Shown: piece after piece, positions 41,445-63,912 of the stretch
Numbering within the stretch: the stretch's first letter is position 1
Layout: each line of letters starts with the position of its first letter
Source: Kofleriaceae bacterium
GTDB lineage: Bacteria > Myxococcota_A > Polyangia > Haliangiales > Haliangiaceae
Direction of reading: 5' to 3'
DNA: 64,000 bases
Assembly: GCA_035715365.1 (NCBI GenBank)
Contig: DASTLB010000022.1
Location: 272,242-336,241, forward strand
Notes under the pieces: generated by a model
What the model was told of the DNA's origin: nothing
Database searches by the model: none
The model's input: only the letters and a program-made list of their open reading frames with translations
Translations under genes and position numbers: made by a program

Positions 41445-42071
41445 ATGCAACAGAGGGGTTGGCGGCTCGCGGCGAAGCAGCTGTTCGATCGCACCGCGGC
41501 GGCCGTCGGGCTCGTGATGACCGCACCGATCCTCGCGGGCACCGCCGCGGCGATCCGCGTGACGATGGGCTCGCCGGTGCTGTTCCGGCAGAAGCGCCCC
41601 GGGTTTCGCGGCGAGATCATCGAGGTCTTCAAGTTCCGGACGATGCGCGATGCCGTCGACGACCACGGCAACCCGCTGCCCGACGCCGAGCGCCTGACGC
41701 CACTCGGCCAGCTGCTGCGATCGTCGTCGGTCGACGAGCTGCCGCAGCTGCTGAACGTGCTGAAGGGCGAGCTGTCGCTCGTCGGGCCGCGGCCCCTGCT
41801 CGTCAAGTACCTGCCGCTGTACTCGCCGGAGCAGGCGCGCCGCCACGACGTGATGCCCGGGATCACCGGCTGGTGTCAGGTCAACGGCCGCAACGCGAAC
41901 GACTGGGACACGAAGCTCGCGCTCGACATCTGGTACGTCGATCACTGGAGCCTGTGGCTCGATCTCCAGATCCTCGTGAAGACGATGTTCTCCGTCGTGC
42001 GCCGCGAGAACATCTCGCAGGAGGGCCACGTCACGATGCCGGAGTTCACCGGCTCGCGAGCGACGTCGTGA
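41445..42071 (+). CDS. Undecaprenyl-phosphate sugar phosphotransferase, small PglC/WbaP-C-terminal type (initiating transferase)
   Basis: 208 aa with one N-terminal TM helix. 'RPGFRGEIIEVFKFRTM' and 'DELPQLLNVLKGELSLVGPRP' are hallmark bacterial sugar-transferase motifs. Confidence 0.85.
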   Translation: MQQRGWRLAAKQLFDRTAAAVGLVMTAPILAGTAAAIRVTMGSPVLFRQKRPGFRGEIIEVFKFRTMRDAVDDHGNPLPDAERLTPLGQLLRSSSVDELPQLLNVLKGELSLVGPRPLLVKYLPLYSPEQARRHDVMPGITGWCQVNGRNANDWDTKLALDIWYVDHWSLWLDLQILVKTMFSVVRRENISQEGHVTMPEFTGSRATS

Positions 42072-42685
42072 TCGAGACGAACCGGCGACTGTGCGTGATC
42101 GGCGCCGGTCCGCACGCGAAGGTCGTGATCGTGACCGCGCGCGCGGTCGGCTTCCAGCACATCGAGGTCTACGACGACGACCCGCAGCGGATCGGCGCGA
42201 CCGTCATGGGTGCACCGATCGTCGCGCCGACGAGCGATGCGCTCGGTCGCGAGACCGCGCTCGTCGTGCTCGCGATCGGTGACAACCGCACGCGCGCGCG
42301 ACTCGCCGGCAGCGCGCGCTGCGAGCTCGCCACGCTCGTCCATCCGACGGCGCACGTCGAGCCGTCATCGACGATCGGCCCCGGCAGCGTCGTGTTCGCG
42401 CGCTCGGTGATCCAGCCGGACACGAAGCTCGGCGCGCACGTGATCGTCAACACCGCGGCGACGATCGATCACGACTGCACGATCGGCGATCACGTCCACG
42501 TCGCGCCGGGCGCACATGTCGCGGGCATCGTCACGATCGGCGACGGCGTCCTCGTCGGGATCGGGGCGTCGATCGCACCGATGGTGAAGATCGGCGCGTG
42601 GTCGCGCGTCGGTGCCGGCGCGGCCGTGATCCACGACGTCCCCGACGGTGTCACGGCGGTCGGTGTACCGGCCCGCGTGCGCTGA
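42068..42685 (+). CDS. Sugar N-acetyltransferase, PglD/NeuD/WbpD family (left-handed beta-helix)
   Basis: The GTG overlaps the previous stop (GTGA). An N-terminal Rossmann-like region 'LCVIGAGPHAKVV' is present, with C-terminal hexapeptide repeats. Confidence 0.8.
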   Translation: MIETNRRLCVIGAGPHAKVVIVTARAVGFQHIEVYDDDPQRIGATVMGAPIVAPTSDALGRETALVVLAIGDNRTRARLAGSARCELATLVHPTAHVEPSSTIGPGSVVFARSVIQPDTKLGAHVIVNTAATIDHDCTIGDHVHVAPGAHVAGIVTIGDGVLVGIGASIAPMVKIGAWSRVGAGAAVIHDVPDGVTAVGVPARVR

Positions 42686-42694
42686 GCGCTGCGT

Positions 42695-43993
42695 TCAGCT
42701 GATCGAGACGTGCCCGCCGACGAAGCGGCGCAGCGCACGCGTCGCGCGCGCGAGGATCGGCGGCCGGCGCTCGCTCGGCGCGAGGCCGTGCTCGTGCACG
42801 AGCCGATCGTAGGCGTGGAGCAGCTCGGCGATGATCTTGACCTCGTCGAACTCGCGCACCGCCTTCGCCCGGCTCGCGGCGCCCATCCGCGCGCGCTCGT
42901 CGGGAGATCGCAGCAGTCGCTCGAGCGCGCCGGCGATCGCCTGCGGATCCTTGAGCGGGATGCTCAGGCCGTTGACCTCGTGATCGACCGCCTGCCGGCA
43001 GCCGCGAATGTCGGTGACGACGCACGGCAATGCCATCGCCGCCGCCTCCATCACCGAGCGCGGCATGCCCTCGCGGTGCGACGGCAGCATGAACACGTCC
43101 ATCGCGGCGTACAGCCGATCGACGTCCTCGCGGTGGCCGAGGAACTGTGCGACCTCGGCGATGCCGTACTGCTCGAGCGCATCCGGCTTGATCGCGTCCG
43201 GCTTGTCCTCGAAGCCACCGATGAAGATCACGCGCGCGTTCGGCACGCGCTGCACGAGCAGCTTCACCGCCTCGAACGTCTCGAGGTAGCCCTTCTCCTC
43301 GACGAGCCGCGCGACCATGCCGACGAGCAGCGTGTCGTCGTCGTAGCCGAGCGCGGCGCGCGTGGCGCGGCGATCGGCGGCGGAGAACCGCGCGGGATCG
43401 AACCGCGTCAGATCGATCCCGTTGCCGATGTTCTGGATCCGCTCGGGACGCGAGACCTTCTCGGCGACCGCGAGCGCGGCATCCTCGGGGTTCTGCGAGA
43501 AGTTGAAGTGCGAGAACGCGAGCGTGATCCGCTCGAGCCACACGAACAGCTGACGCCGGCGCGGCCCGGCGAACGTCGGGAAGTACAGGCCGTGGATCGT
43601 GTGGATCCGCAGCGGCACGCGCGCCGCGAGCGCGGCGTACTGCCCGAGCAGCGCGCCCTTCGGCGTATGCGTGTGGACGATGTCGAACCGCTCGCGGCGC
43701 AGCAGCCGGTACAGCGCGATCAGCGCCTTGAGGTCGCCGAGCGGTCCGATCCGCCGGCTGATCGGGATGTCGTGGAACTCGAGGCCGCGCTCCTCGAGCG
43801 CCTTCGCGTGGTTGCCGCGCGCCGAGATCCCGACGACGTCGTAGCCGGCCGCGCGCATCTGCTCGAGCTGGTTGAGCAGCAGGTAACGCAGCGAGATGTC
43901 GGACGCCGCGATGTGTGCGACGCGCAGTGGTTCGGTCCCGATCACCGCCGCATCTTTGCATATCGCCGTGAACGCGGCGGCCCTCACGATCAT
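42695..43993 (-). CDS. Glycosyltransferase family 4 (GT-B)
   Basis: The C-terminal 'FMLPSHREGMPRSVMEAAAMALPCVVTD' is the GT4 EX7E region. The N-terminal 'LRVAHIAASD' is also typical. The start is ATG 43993; an alternative is about 20 codons downstream. Confidence 0.8.
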   Translation of the reverse strand: MIVRAAAFTAICKDAAVIGTEPLRVAHIAASDISLRYLLLNQLEQMRAAGYDVVGISARGNHAKALEERGLEFHDIPISRRIGPLGDLKALIALYRLLRRERFDIVHTHTPKGALLGQYAALAARVPLRIHTIHGLYFPTFAGPRRRQLFVWLERITLAFSHFNFSQNPEDAALAVAEKVSRPERIQNIGNGIDLTRFDPARFSAADRRATRAALGYDDDTLLVGMVARLVEEKGYLETFEAVKLLVQRVPNARVIFIGGFEDKPDAIKPDALEQYGIAEVAQFLGHREDVDRLYAAMDVFMLPSHREGMPRSVMEAAAMALPCVVTDIRGCRQAVDHEVNGLSIPLKDPQAIAGALERLLRSPDERARMGAASRAKAVREFDEVKIIAELLHAYDRLVHEHGLAPSERRPPILARATRALRRFVGGHVSIS

Positions 43994-62493: not shown

Positions 62494-62557
62494 CCAGCGT
62501 TCTGCGCGGACAGATCGTGTGAGTGAACTTTTTGCGCGTGTCGGTCACTGACCGAGC

Positions 62558-63250
62558 ATGCATACGCGTGCACTCGACTCCGTCGGGGTGCGCGACGTCC
62601 CGCTCGTCTCGCTGTTGCGACGACGCGGACGCCGATCGCTCGCCCGGCGCGGCCTCAAACGTCTGCAAGCCGTCGGACTCGCTCCGTTCCTGCGCGAGGT
62701 GCCGATCGATCGGCTGCGCCACGACGACAAGCACGTCTTCGCGCAGGAGGGCTACGGCGGTCAGCCGATCGAGGACAACCCGACGTACCGGTTCTTCCTC
62801 GCGTACGTGCAGGGCCGCGTCGACGACGCGCGGCGCGGCTTCGAGGCGTTCTACGCCGACCAGTTCGCGCGCTACGGGTTCGTCTCCAAGGGCAAGGGCG
62901 GCATGTTCGGCGGCTCGCTGTTCCGCGAGGTGATGCGGCAACACGCGGCGGCCGGCCGTGCGCTCGACCGCGATCGCCCGGTGTTCTGCCCGGATATCGT
63001 GACGCGCGCGATCGCACGGCGCGTGCAACAACGGTTCGAGCTGCTGCACTCGATCGAGCGCGACGGCTACCAGCCGAGCATCGCCGACCCGGTGATCGGC
63101 GTCCTGCAGGACGACGGCACGATCTTCATCGAGGGCGGCGCGCATCGTGCGGCCGCGCTGCTCGCGCTCGATCGCGAGGTCATGCCCGGCGTGCTCGTCA
63201 TGACGGCGCGCACGCGCCACGTGCTCCGAACCTTGAGGGTGATCAAATGA
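62558..63250 (+). CDS. Hypothetical protein with ParB/sulfiredoxin-like fold motif
   Basis: The C-terminal 'TIFIEGGAHRAAALLAL' fits the ParB/Srx '[VIL]xDGxHRxxA' nucleotide-binding motif. There is no HTH. It is coupled (ATGA) to the downstream methyltransferase. Confidence 0.4.
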   Translation: MHTRALDSVGVRDVPLVSLLRRRGRRSLARRGLKRLQAVGLAPFLREVPIDRLRHDDKHVFAQEGYGGQPIEDNPTYRFFLAYVQGRVDDARRGFEAFYADQFARYGFVSKGKGGMFGGSLFREVMRQHAAAGRALDRDRPVFCPDIVTRAIARRVQQRFELLHSIERDGYQPSIADPVIGVLQDDGTIFIEGGAHRAAALLALDREVMPGVLVMTARTRHVLRTLRVIK

Positions 63251-63912
63251 CGAACGAAGACTTCCAGACCTGGGTGCGGCGCGAGGAGTGGTACCAGACG
63301 ATCGAGCTGTCCGGCGGCGTGACCACGAAGGGCAGCGTCGACTCGCGCAAGCGCTATCCGGCGCTCGAGCGGATCGACGTCCGCGGCAAGCGCGTGCTCG
63401 ACATCGGCTGCAACTCCGGCGCGTACAGCCTGTGGGCGAAGCGCCACGGCGCGCGCGAGGTGATCGGCATCGACATCCAGGACAAGCGGCTCGAGCAAGC
63501 GCGCCAGCTCGCGCGTCACGAGGGCCTCGACATCACGTTCGCGAACCGCAGCCTGTACGACGTCGGCGCGCTCGGCCGGTTCGACGTCGTGTTCTGCTTC
63601 GCCGTGCTGACCGAGAATCCCGATCTGTTCGGCGCGCTCAAGGCGATCACGAGCGTCGTCGGCGACAAGCTGCTGCTCGAGCTCCACCTCGCGAAGCCGA
63701 TCGCCTACGTCTCGAAGTCGAAGAACTACCGGATCGGCTACGCGTCGATGCCGCGCTGGAAGGCGGTGCTCGAGCCGCGCAAGGCGAAGCACGGCTGGAT
63801 GATCGATCCGAGCCTCGAGGTGCTGCGCACCGTCGTCGGCGACGAGTTTCGCGTCGAGGACCGCGGGCCGAGCGTACGCTACGACCTCGTCGAGATCACG
63901 CGGGTGGCGTGA
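63247..63912 (+). CDS. Class-I SAM-dependent methyltransferase
   Basis: Motif I is 'VLDIGCNSGAYS', followed by an acidic 'DIQDKRLE' and motif II 'FDVVFCFAVL'. Confidence 0.75.
   Translation: MTNEDFQTWVRREEWYQTIELSGGVTTKGSVDSRKRYPALERIDVRGKRVLDIGCNSGAYSLWAKRHGAREVIGIDIQDKRLEQARQLARHEGLDITFANRSLYDVGALGRFDVVFCFAVLTENPDLFGALKAITSVVGDKLLLELHLAKPIAYVSKSKNYRIGYASMPRWKAVLEPRKAKHGWMIDPSLEVLRTVVGDEFRVEDRGPSVRYDLVEITRVA

Follow-up and report, generated by a model that had tools for sequence, protein, structure and literature searches.

A 64-kb window (the whole stretch of DNA analysed) from an uncultured soil myxobacterium of the family Kofleriaceae (Myxococcota) contains a genuine, complete gene cluster for the synthesis and export of a surface polysaccharide, and the product is likely to be sulfated because a sulfotransferase gene lies just beyond the window edge. 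Our best explanation, which we hold to be fairly probable as a whole, is that the locus makes a secreted or capsular polysaccharide by a Wzx/Wzy-dependent pathway. Genes were called by GC3 frame analysis and their families were then checked with Pfam and NCBIfam; all parts of this pathway type, which a first-pass annotation of the sequence had proposed, are present. Every component listed in that inventory was recovered, and four features that it had omitted were added: a LamG lipoprotein, a secreted 201-aa protein, ccdAB, and a complete SAM methyltransferase. Both DNA strands are coding within the cluster, which comprises the following genes together with an upstream kinase gene.

39050..41431, plus: Ser/Thr protein kinase with C-terminal TPR repeats (Pkinase E 1.9e-44, several TPR families)
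41445..42071, plus: PglC-like initiating polyprenyl-phosphate sugar-phosphate transferase, 208 aa (PF02397 Bac_transf E 1.5e-59)
42080..42685, plus: NeuD/PglB/VioB-family sugar N-acetyltransferase (PglD_N and Hexapep; TIGR03570 205.8 bits, cut-off 160.8)
42695..43993, minus: first GT4 glycosyltransferase (Glycos_transf_1 E 7e-34, Glyco_trans_4_4)
44036..45337, plus: Ugd, UDP-glucose 6-dehydrogenase type (three UDPG_MGDP_dh domains; TIGR03026 455 bits)
45309..46298, minus: NAD-dependent SDR epimerase (PF01370 E 6e-58)
46354..47424, plus: DegT/DnrJ/EryC1 PLP-dependent sugar aminotransferase (PF01041 E 4.6e-92)
47403..48224, minus: Laminin_G_3 (concanavalin-like) protein (PF13385 E 5e-17)
48476..49798, plus: 18-stranded outer-membrane beta-barrel protein, 440 aa, candidate Wzp/EpsX-type export porin (structure model)
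49798..50799, plus: GFO/IDH/MocA oxidoreductase, WbpB-like (PF01408 E 1e-24)
50892..53090, plus: Wzc polysaccharide co-polymerase with BY-kinase domain (Wzz, GNVR and AAA_31; TIGR01007 192.8 bits, cut-off 108)
53087..54238, plus: second GT4 glycosyltransferase (Glyco_trans_1_4 E 1.4e-19, Glyco_transf_4)
54260-54538 and 54538-54852, plus: ccdA and ccdB (CcdA PF07362 E 1.2e-17, CcdB PF01845 E 5e-21)
54877..55482, minus: secreted 201-aa protein with GQVS repeats
55638..56252, plus: short two-domain OPX protein (D1D2, class-3), 204 aa (Poly_export and one SLBB domain)
56256..58754, plus: Wzy polymerase fused to a C-terminal TPR region (Wzy_C E 1.4e-18, TPR_19)
58761..59669, plus: CysD, ATP sulfurylase small subunit (NF003587 465.7 bits; NF009214 445 bits, cut-off 413)
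59669..60937, plus: CysN, ATP sulfurylase GTPase subunit, 422 aa (TIGR02034 563 bits, cut-off 336)
60943..62493, plus: Wzx flippase, MOP family (Polysacc_synt_3 E 5e-81)
62699..63250, plus: ParB/Srx-fold protein of a rare family (AF2 pLDDT 92)
63247..63912, plus: complete SAM-dependent methyltransferase, 221 aa (Methyltransf_25 E 5e-15 and related families)
63896..64000, minus: last 34 codons of a PAPS-type sulfotransferase

Assembly of the repeat unit

The repeat unit would be begun on undecaprenyl phosphate by the small PglC-type transferase, which has one hydrophobic segment (residues 19-37) and matches the C-terminal catalytic portion of large PGT models, and would be lengthened by the two GT4 enzymes. 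UDP-GlcA and UDP-GalA can be supplied by Ugd, whose top equivalog model is TuaD (472 bits, under its cut-off), and by the SDR epimerase, which is most similar to UDP-glucuronate 4-epimerases; its closest solved structures are the UDP-GlcA 4-epimerases 6ZL6/6ZLA (E 2e-60) and MoeE5. An acetamido sugar can be provided by the GFO/IDH/MocA enzyme, the DegT aminotransferase and the NeuD/PglD acetyltransferase. The first of these is a candidate nucleotide-sugar 3-dehydrogenase, its top NCBIfam model being UDP-GlcNAc 3-dehydrogenase (154 bits, under cut-off). The candidate starts of the DegT gene range over 46354-46375, and an ATG at 46210 would create an 89-nt overlap with the epimerase gene.

Wzc possesses two TM segments, the Walker A motif SANPREGKTT and a Tyr cluster, GGYYYYSYYGYG, and a hydropathy scan gives Wzy about 14 TM segments. 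The TPR-bearing Ser/Thr kinase, whose gene stops 13 nt before that of the initiating transferase, may regulate the locus. The gene order barrel-GFO-Wzc-GT4-unk-OPX-Wzy-CysD-CysN-Wzx, in which unk is the gene between GT4 and OPX, is shared with L023, a relative whose CysN is 90% identical.

Sulfate activation and the adjoining sulfotransferase

The cysD and cysN genes sit between wzy and wzx with gaps of at most 6 nt: the OPX gene is followed after 3 nt by wzy, cysD begins 6 nt past wzy and overlaps cysN by 1 nt, and wzx begins after a further 5 nt. CysN matches NCBI HEU0030810.1, a protein of a Kofleriaceae MAG, at 100% identity; it is without an APS-kinase (CysC) domain, and of the 632 positions in the CysNC model it aligns only to 20-431. 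A search for cysC came up empty across the 64-kb window, the 1.4 kb past it and, in the closest relative, a span of +/-10 kb. The NCBIfam matches and the lack of cysC in 64 kb confirm the earlier description of a cysD-cysN pair lying inside the cluster without cysC. The accompanying proposal that APS or PAPS is made locally holds for APS, the predicted product of CysD-CysN, but not for PAPS, since cysC is missing from the 64 kb; PAPS would be completed by an APS kinase whose gene we assume to lie in another part of the genome.

The partial gene at 63895+, previously listed as a sulfotransferase candidate, proved to be the 3' end of a minus-strand PAPS-type sulfotransferase gene: its translation in the window, GYREYLSPDDVEYLNRRIADTLSPFYSYYLTPPA followed by the stop, is the C-terminus of a gene on contig L001. 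The full gene (287 aa; window-equivalent 63896-64759, the remainder lying past the window) was taken from this near-identical contig, which matches the window at 99.84% over 3145 nt, and not from the window itself. The protein matches PF00685 (66 bits, cut-off 22), carries the motifs PGCGRTW and RDPRDAIIS with the PAPS-binding motifs intact, and aligns over its full length with plant and human SULTs, RKGKVGxY included. Its gene is convergent, flanked by two methyltransferase genes, and 1.4 kb from wzx. The search past the window thus yielded a sulfotransferase, and no cysC within 1.4 kb. The sulfotransferase so close to the locus speaks against the refuting case named in the first-pass annotation, in which none would be present nearby. 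With cysD-cysN held tightly between wzy and wzx and a canonical PAPS-type sulfotransferase adjoining the locus immediately downstream, the first-pass prediction of a sulfated polysaccharide is strengthened. The cytoplasmic sulfotransferase and the methyltransferases would decorate the lipid-linked repeat unit before it is flipped by Wzx.

Eight other cysDN contexts were sampled in relatives; all lie in or beside polysaccharide genes, and six of them have cysC either next to cysDN or no more than about 4 kb away. Across all contexts CysN is 82-98% identical, forming a single group with no paralogue split; conservation is much lower for Wzx, Wzy and the barrel protein (47-69% identity). Relative L029 encodes, 6.7 kb from cysD, a CysH with the APS-reductase motifs CC...CxxC...ECGLH; with such an enzyme, cysC would be needed only for PAPS. 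Because of the nearby cysC genes in relatives, the CysH of L029 and the single CysN group, cysDN is probably the general ATP sulfurylase of the family rather than a copy dedicated to the polysaccharide, and would feed APS-reductase assimilation as well as PAPS synthesis.

The tight CysN group, the L029 cysH and the lack of cysC in the window are also consistent with a further-reaching reading, in which cysD-cysN is a housekeeping assimilatory ATP sulfurylase that has stayed next to polysaccharide genes in a conserved neighbourhood, the polysaccharide is unsulfated, and the sulfotransferase has a different acceptor, for instance a lipid, small molecule or protein. The homologues most similar to the sulfotransferase in other Kofleriaceae, which lie on a small separate island without cysDN, point the same way. 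We consider this unlikely. The sulfotransferase is placed inside the locus, between methyltransferases and close to wzx, and relative L023 has a different, non-homologous sulfotransferase (PF13469) in the equivalent position after wzx. Furthermore, on the islands whose homologues are 66-68% identical, the sulfotransferase is again found directly paired with a Wzx flippase, and relatives with an apparent APS reductase retain cysC beside cysDN and Ugd, though it has no assimilatory role there.

A sulfated polysaccharide, the reading that we prefer, can be set beside known systems. In M. tuberculosis (CysDNC) and rhizobia (NodPQ/NodH), ATP sulfurylase, with APS kinase, feeds PAPS-dependent glycoconjugate sulfation, and assimilation proceeds through APS reductase. 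CysC is fused to or paired with CysN in CysDNC and NodPQ, whereas CysN stands alone in the Kofleriaceae locus, and in those systems sulfate is passed to glycolipids or Nod factors instead of to a polysaccharide polymerised by Wzy. The occurrence of cysDN(C) and sulfotransferases within polysaccharide clusters is already published, and PAPS-synthesis genes with sulfotransferases in such a cluster are a reported hallmark of sulfated CPS (PMC11641403). The sulfated capsular polysaccharide cluster of Vibrio sp. KMM 8419 (cysNDC and sulfotransferases) likewise has these genes embedded, but it holds explicit second copies of cysN, cysD and cysC and uses ABC-transporter/Kps export, whereas the Kofleriaceae locus has no cysC, a cysDN resembling the general copy of its family, and Wzx/Wzy with OPX and porin. 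The synechan (xss) cluster of Synechocystis is a Wzx/Wzy-type cluster for a sulfated EPS with in-cluster sulfotransferases, differing in being cyanobacterial and in its export components and regulation; the term cysN is absent from the text of that paper (PMC8205485).

Outer-membrane export

The OPX protein is without an outer-membrane-spanning helix, and its closest solved structure is 9N9A, M. xanthus sWzaB, a class-3 OPX protein (E 8e-22, residues 26-202). The 440-aa protein has no Pfam match and bears a type-1 signal peptide; it was modelled as an 18-stranded barrel with AlgE among its top structural neighbours. These matches bear out the split outer-membrane export claimed at first, and the polymer would exit through a composite OPX/porin translocon resembling WzaB/WzpB. 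The further claim that a short OPX protein with a porin is the myxobacterial solution does not stand, as this arrangement, already published as class-3 OPX/Wzp, occurs widely beyond myxobacteria (PMC9603273, PMC9601211).

By itself, the barrel fold does not tell AlgE-like exporters apart from OccK/OprD substrate porins, and the 440-aa protein might be an ordinary OccK/OprD-like uptake porin or a Wzi-like capsule anchor rather than an export channel. This we regard as improbable: an OPX protein without a membrane-spanning domain requires some porin (PMC9603273), and chance presence of the barrel gene is countered by its 1-nt overlap with the GFO start and by the barrel-GFO-Wzc block, which is kept in relatives with barrel identity down to 47%.

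Among the closest known systems are the EPS/BPS/MASC pathways of M. xanthus (WzaB-WzpB-WzcB), which share with the Kofleriaceae locus a Wzx/Wzy-dependent pathway (PMC9603273, PMC9601211, PMC12819527), an OPX protein of roughly 200 aa with only Poly_export and one SLBB domain, an 18-stranded, AlgE-like Wzp/EpsX porin with a type-1 signal peptide, and a PCP-2a Wzc with BY-kinase. The barrel and OPX genes are adjacent in M. xanthus, however, and 5.8 kb apart here, and the Phe-Phe porin-binding motif that ends WzaB is not kept in the Kofleriaceae OPX protein (...VPERPY), whose lipobox (A-P-A-C) is also atypical. The Kofleriaceae locus differs further in the TPR extension of Wzy and in its cysDN, sulfotransferase and methyltransferase genes; when the text of the OPX classification paper was searched, sulfate did not occur in it (PMC9603273). 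Every building block of the locus has already been described in other bacteria.

The ParB/Srx-fold protein and other genes

The gene for the ParB/Srx-fold protein comes after wzx, and its last 4 nt are shared with the start of the methyltransferase gene; the NCBI start at 62699 gives 183 aa, and the longest ORF starts at 62558. The protein has only eight homologues, among which the motif GGxHRAAAL is invariant, and Foldseek ranks sulfiredoxin, ParB/Noc/KorB and SbnI highest among the matches to its model (probability 0.99, E 3e-3, over about 78 columns). The fold named in the first-pass annotation was upheld, and the sulfotransferase candidacy was rejected: the protein has no sulfotransferase features and a canonical sulfotransferase is already present. 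That it nevertheless acts as the sulfotransferase, or as a non-orthologous APS kinase that took the place of cysC in this lineage, is very improbable. In favour of such a role, ATP-dependent phosphotransferases (sulfiredoxin and the serine kinase SbnI) use this fold, cysC is absent beside cysN in this lineage, and the gene is set between wzx and the methyltransferase gene. Against it, the closest relative with the Wzy-cysDN-Wzx core has neither cysC nor a homologue of the protein, the locus around homologue P0248 makes another polysaccharide and has no sulfate genes, and the structural match is short and of modest E value.

The Laminin_G_3 protein has a lipobox-like N-terminal ...ASAGC. The ccdAB genes are a toxin-antitoxin pair inserted into the cluster; their GC is 0.607 versus 0.65-0.71 in flanking genes, and they are absent at the corresponding site in L023. 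Finally, the secreted 201-aa protein matched no known family in Pfam or NCBIfam, and a 59% identical gene lies between GT4 and OPX in L023, the closest relative.

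Composition and probable export machinery of the polysaccharide locus

Because the window has a G+C content of ~70%, raw lists of its open reading frames consist mostly of spurious frames, and genes were called from third-position GC bias. The components that the first-pass annotation had listed for a Wzx/Wzy-dependent polysaccharide locus were all borne out by Pfam and NCBIfam. PF02397, PF13440/PF01943, PF04932 and the Wzz, GNVR and BY-kinase domains occur together in one locus, with matches that exceed the Pfam cut-offs or have strong E-values, which places the locus in the Wzx/Wzy pathway. 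The initiating transferase is a 208-aa PglC-like Bac_transf enzyme (Pfam), and matches to the two databases further comprise a NeuD/PglD acetyltransferase, two GT4 enzymes, a UDP-glucose-dehydrogenase-type enzyme, a DegT aminotransferase and Wzx. The best solved-structure relatives of the SDR epimerase are 6ZL6/6ZLA and MoeE5, which we take to be UDP-GlcA 4-epimerases, and the GFO/IDH/MocA oxidoreductase (GFO) lies nearest to the UDP-GlcNAc 3-dehydrogenase models of NCBIfam. Wzy possesses ~14 transmembrane segments and a TPR tail, and Wzc possesses two transmembrane segments, a Walker A motif (SANPREGKTT) and the tyrosine cluster GGYYYYSYYGYG. The locus occupies both strands and also contains a Laminin_G_3 lipoprotein-like gene and a complete SAM methyltransferase gene (63247-63912); no polysaccharide or sulfur genes were found among the scanned genes upstream of 39050, which comprise all genes called there but a few short ones. 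We conclude that the polysaccharide locus is real and that the first reading of it was a good one. Its product is predicted to be a sulfated exopolysaccharide with uronic acid and amino sugar, made by a soil myxobacterium and belonging to known kinds. Directly upstream of the Ser/Thr kinase gene preceding the cluster, the interval 35684-38975 holds genes for a GAF-domain sigma-54 enhancer-binding protein and for a divergent membrane protein of 499 aa without family assignment, both of which are possible regulators of the locus.

Outer membrane export had been assigned to a short OPX protein and a separate barrel, an assignment that our analysis supports:

48476-49798, 440-aa protein (barrel)
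55638-56252, 204-aa short Poly_export protein (OPX)

In Pfam, OPX consists of Poly_export (43-114) and one SLBB domain (123-199) with nothing beyond, the D1D2 architecture of class-3 OPX proteins that lacks Wza_C and a membrane-spanning helix, and its signal peptide is its sole hydrophobic segment. Its best solved-structure match (E 8e-22 over residues 26-202) is 9N9A, a crystal structure of sWzaB from M. xanthus, which serves as the model for class-3 OPX proteins. The signal peptide ends in the lipobox-like but atypical sequence ...LASAPAC. In WzaB, N-terminal lipidation is needed for function and a terminal Phe-Phe motif binds the porin WzpB (PMC12819527), whereas the C-terminus of the window OPX, ...DVFVPERPY, is aromatic but not Phe-Phe. 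Among class-3 OPX proteins, no more than about half are predicted to be lipoproteins (PMC9603273). Neither Pfam nor NCBIfam assigns the barrel to a family; it starts with a type-1 signal peptide and ends in an aromatic residue, and its AlphaFold model, built from a 32-sequence alignment (pLDDT 78), contains 18 long strands and matches AlgE with TM scores of 0.47-0.49 (Foldseek). On this predicted structure it has the AlgE/PgaA-like fold of Wzp/EpsX-type porins, and it shares both strand number and AlgE likeness with M. xanthus EpsX and WzpX/S/B, published as 18-stranded barrels with AlgE as their nearest structural homologue (PMC9601211, PMC9603273). The short-OPX and porin genes would be expected to adjoin one another in a system of this type, but in the window they are 5.8 kb apart; unlike in M. 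xanthus, the barrel gene is coupled to GFO-Wzc, a block that is kept in relatives. The arrangement of short OPX and barrel is not special to this locus (PMC9603273, PMC9601211). Publication of the composite OPX/porin translocon dates to 2022, and its dissection to 2026.

Sulfate activation and predicted sulfate transfer

The first-pass annotation had also proposed that sulfate is activated within the cluster. CysD scores above the NCBIfam cut-offs of NF009214 (445 bits versus 413) and TIGR02039 (441 versus 397), as does CysN above that of TIGR02034 (563 versus 336). The latter protein, 422 aa long and 100% identical to NCBI HEU0030810.1 of a Kofleriaceae MAG, which makes the source an uncultured member of this family of Myxococcota, has no kinase domain, and its alignment to the CysNC model covers only positions 20-431 of 632. 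The OPX, Wzy, CysD, CysN and Wzx genes follow one another at spacings of 3, 6, -1 and 5 nt, and cysDN therefore lie within one operon. The proposal thus stands for the cysDN pair but not for a local PAPS module, since the 64-kb window has no APS kinase. Three CysC queries (an approximate E. coli sequence, and the CysC proteins of L026 and L029, two contigs of relatives) detected no APS kinase (PF01583), fused or separate, by tblastn in the window, in L001 (a Logan contig reaching past the right-hand window edge) or within 10 kb on either side in L023, a contig of the closest relative. As a positive control, the E. coli query found the kinase of the related contig L025 at 1e-35, and the CysC queries recovered the kinase in other relatives. 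Neither cysC nor cysH turned up in the window, whether in Pfam searches of the DegT, ccdA and ccdB open reading frames and of 45 of the 54 called genes or in tblastn of the whole window with the three CysC sequences and a single CysH sequence; the complete CysDNC/NodPQ module for PAPS synthesis is accordingly absent from it. SULT-type sulfotransferases consume PAPS, and an APS kinase is therefore required. Taken alone, cysDN inside a cluster argue only weakly for sulfation; the weight of the argument falls on the sulfotransferase and cysC.

The sulfotransferase itself lies at the window edge, in the partial gene that had been named as one of two candidates:

63896-64000, - strand, the last 34 codons of a 287-aa protein

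It was read from L001, which matches window 60856-64000 at 99.84% identity and extends 1.4 kb further, the only sequence known beyond the window. On the L001 sequence the protein scores 66 bits for PF00685, where the cut-off is 22. A 5'-PSB motif (PGCGRTW, residue 47; consensus PxxGxTW) and a 3'-PB motif (RDPRDAIIS, residue 122; consensus RDPxDxxxS) are present, the sequence ARKGKVGGY pairs with RKGKVGDW of SOT16 as the C-terminal RKGxxG motif, and the protein aligns over its full length with plant and human cytosolic sulfotransferases. It contains no hydrophobic segment and should therefore work in the cytoplasm, where it may act on the lipid-linked repeat unit. A second methyltransferase gene comes after it in L001. 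Scans of genome and metagenome contigs with this enzyme yielded no relatives above 66-68% identity. The loci on L002-L004 and L011-L013, contigs of relatives, were considered as instances of the same cluster and rejected, as they represent a different small island, in which Wzx and one or two sulfotransferases (sharing 66-68% identity with the enzyme at the window edge) are accompanied by a methyltransferase, a GMC oxidoreductase and a 738-aa protein with a sulfatase domain (L004 4490-12399; also L002, L003, L012 and L013). No cysDN was found within 10 kb of the small island in other Kofleriaceae.

The other candidate was a ParB/Srx-like protein (NCBI HEU0030812.1, locus tag VFQ53_09265), for which the fold call is plausible. 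Its family is rare, with eight members, in all of which GGxHRAAAL is invariant (the nucleotide-binding motif of the ParB/Srx superfamily being GxxHR), and it has no Pfam match even at E 1. Its model (pLDDT 92) has as best structural neighbours sulfiredoxin, the N-domains of ParB/Noc/KorB, and SbnI, at a Foldseek probability of 0.99 but a weak E of 3e-3 over ~78 of 183 residues. Nothing ties the protein to sulfate transfer. One homologue sits in another polysaccharide locus that has no sulfate genes, and L023 carries none; a 229-aa protein there with no Pfam match is not a homologue. Given this distribution and the short structural match, we reject a role as sulfotransferase or as APS-kinase substitute as the main reading, and the 287-aa enzyme is the sulfotransferase candidate that we retain.

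cysDN neighborhoods in other Kofleriaceae and known sulfated polymers

Eight other Kofleriaceae CysN neighborhoods were compared, with CysN 83-90% identical to that of the window. L023 and L024 (CysN 90%) preserve the full order barrel-GFO-Wzc-GT4-unknown-OPX-Wzy-CysD-CysN-Wzx; downstream of wzx, the sulfotransferase is of another kind (PF13469), and the modifying set also differs and includes a TylF methyltransferase, PhyH and MBOAT. The order cysD-cysN-cysC is found in L026, L027 and the P0044 contig of another relative, with polysaccharide genes after the trio in the first two and on both flanks in the third. In L025, L029 and L030, cysC lies 2-4.8 kb from cysDN among epimerase genes, adjoining a Ugd orthologue in L025 and L029, and in L031 cysDN are followed by MBOAT.

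One of these neighborhoods bears on the use of cysC. L029 encodes, 6.7 kb upstream of cysD, a 233-aa CysH (2638-3339, + strand) with CC...CxxC...ECGLH motifs, which we take to be the mark of APS reductases. Assimilation in the family would thus proceed via APS and need only CysDN, leaving cysC for PAPS synthesis only, and retained cysC would point to PAPS-dependent sulfation. CysN is 82-98% identical across all contexts, and the operon-embedded copies form no separate clade. Judged from this tight, family-wide identity group, the window cysDN are probably a dual-use pair.

Two further features of the relatives were observed. A conserved four-gene block, in which only TPR matches annotate, abuts cysC; it encodes proteins of ~460 aa and ~105 aa, a ~362-aa TPR protein and a ~1184-1205-aa TPR protein:

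L025, 16570-21272
L029, 15361-21269
L030, 13769-21269
P0044 contig

At L025 8982-9888, in a 4.9-Mb long-read contig, cysD is spread over two frames; a sequencing error that shifted the frame is the probable cause, and a real pseudogene is possible.

Bacterial sulfated polysaccharides are uncommon and are sought as heparin-like biomaterials, and their documented producers are mainly cyanobacteria and marine bacteria. In-cluster sulfotransferases are reportedly known for cyanobacterial synechan. In Vibrio sp. KMM 8419, PAPS-synthesis genes and sulfotransferases in a polysaccharide cluster have been termed the hallmark of a sulfated CPS (PMC11641403). Among the papers that we searched, none joins myxobacteria, sulfated polysaccharide and sulfotransferase or reports a myxobacterial locus of this sort, and those on Myxococcota gave no more than counts of MAGs with or without sulfotransferase genes (PMC9723792). 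If the sulfation prediction is true, a soil myxobacterial lineage joins these producers and offers a natural case of a polyanionic sulfated polymer crossing a class-3 OPX/porin translocon. We consider doubtful a broader, joint reading in which soil Kofleriaceae would share, across the family, a sulfated, glycosaminoglycan-like EPS of uronic acid and amino sugar, the sole ATP sulfurylase of the family would in this lineage be built firmly into a wza-wzy-cysDN-wzx operon that co-expresses sulfur activation and polymer synthesis, and the ParB/Srx-fold protein would represent a new enzyme that modifies polysaccharides in a nucleotide-dependent manner. Were it true, Myxococcota would gain their first described sulfated EPS system, which would also be the first with export via a class-3 OPX/porin translocon. 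No current model is overturned by the locus.

Additional genes within and outside the locus

Two features lie between the second GT4 gene and the OPX gene:

54260-54852, + strand, ccdA/ccdB toxin-antitoxin pair, between the second GT4 gene and the gene for the secreted 201-aa protein
54877-55482, - strand, secreted protein of 201 aa that has GQVS repeats and an acidic tail rich in proline

The toxin-antitoxin assignment follows from matches to PF07362 (64 bits versus 22) and PF01845 (75 bits versus 29) and a 1-nt overlap of the genes. With a GC content of 0.607 versus 0.65-0.71 in flanking genes, and with the equivalent site in L023 devoid of it, ccdAB appears to have entered the polysaccharide operon recently. 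The secreted protein, which neither Pfam nor NCBIfam places in a family, has a counterpart of 59% identity at the equal position between GT4 and OPX genes in L023 (5400-5951, - strand), and may serve the export machinery as an uncharacterised accessory. Elsewhere in the window, an HD and AAA_33 kinase-like protein (9209-11199, - strand) adjoins an RNA ligase gene, in what looks like an RNA-repair gene pair unconnected with the locus.
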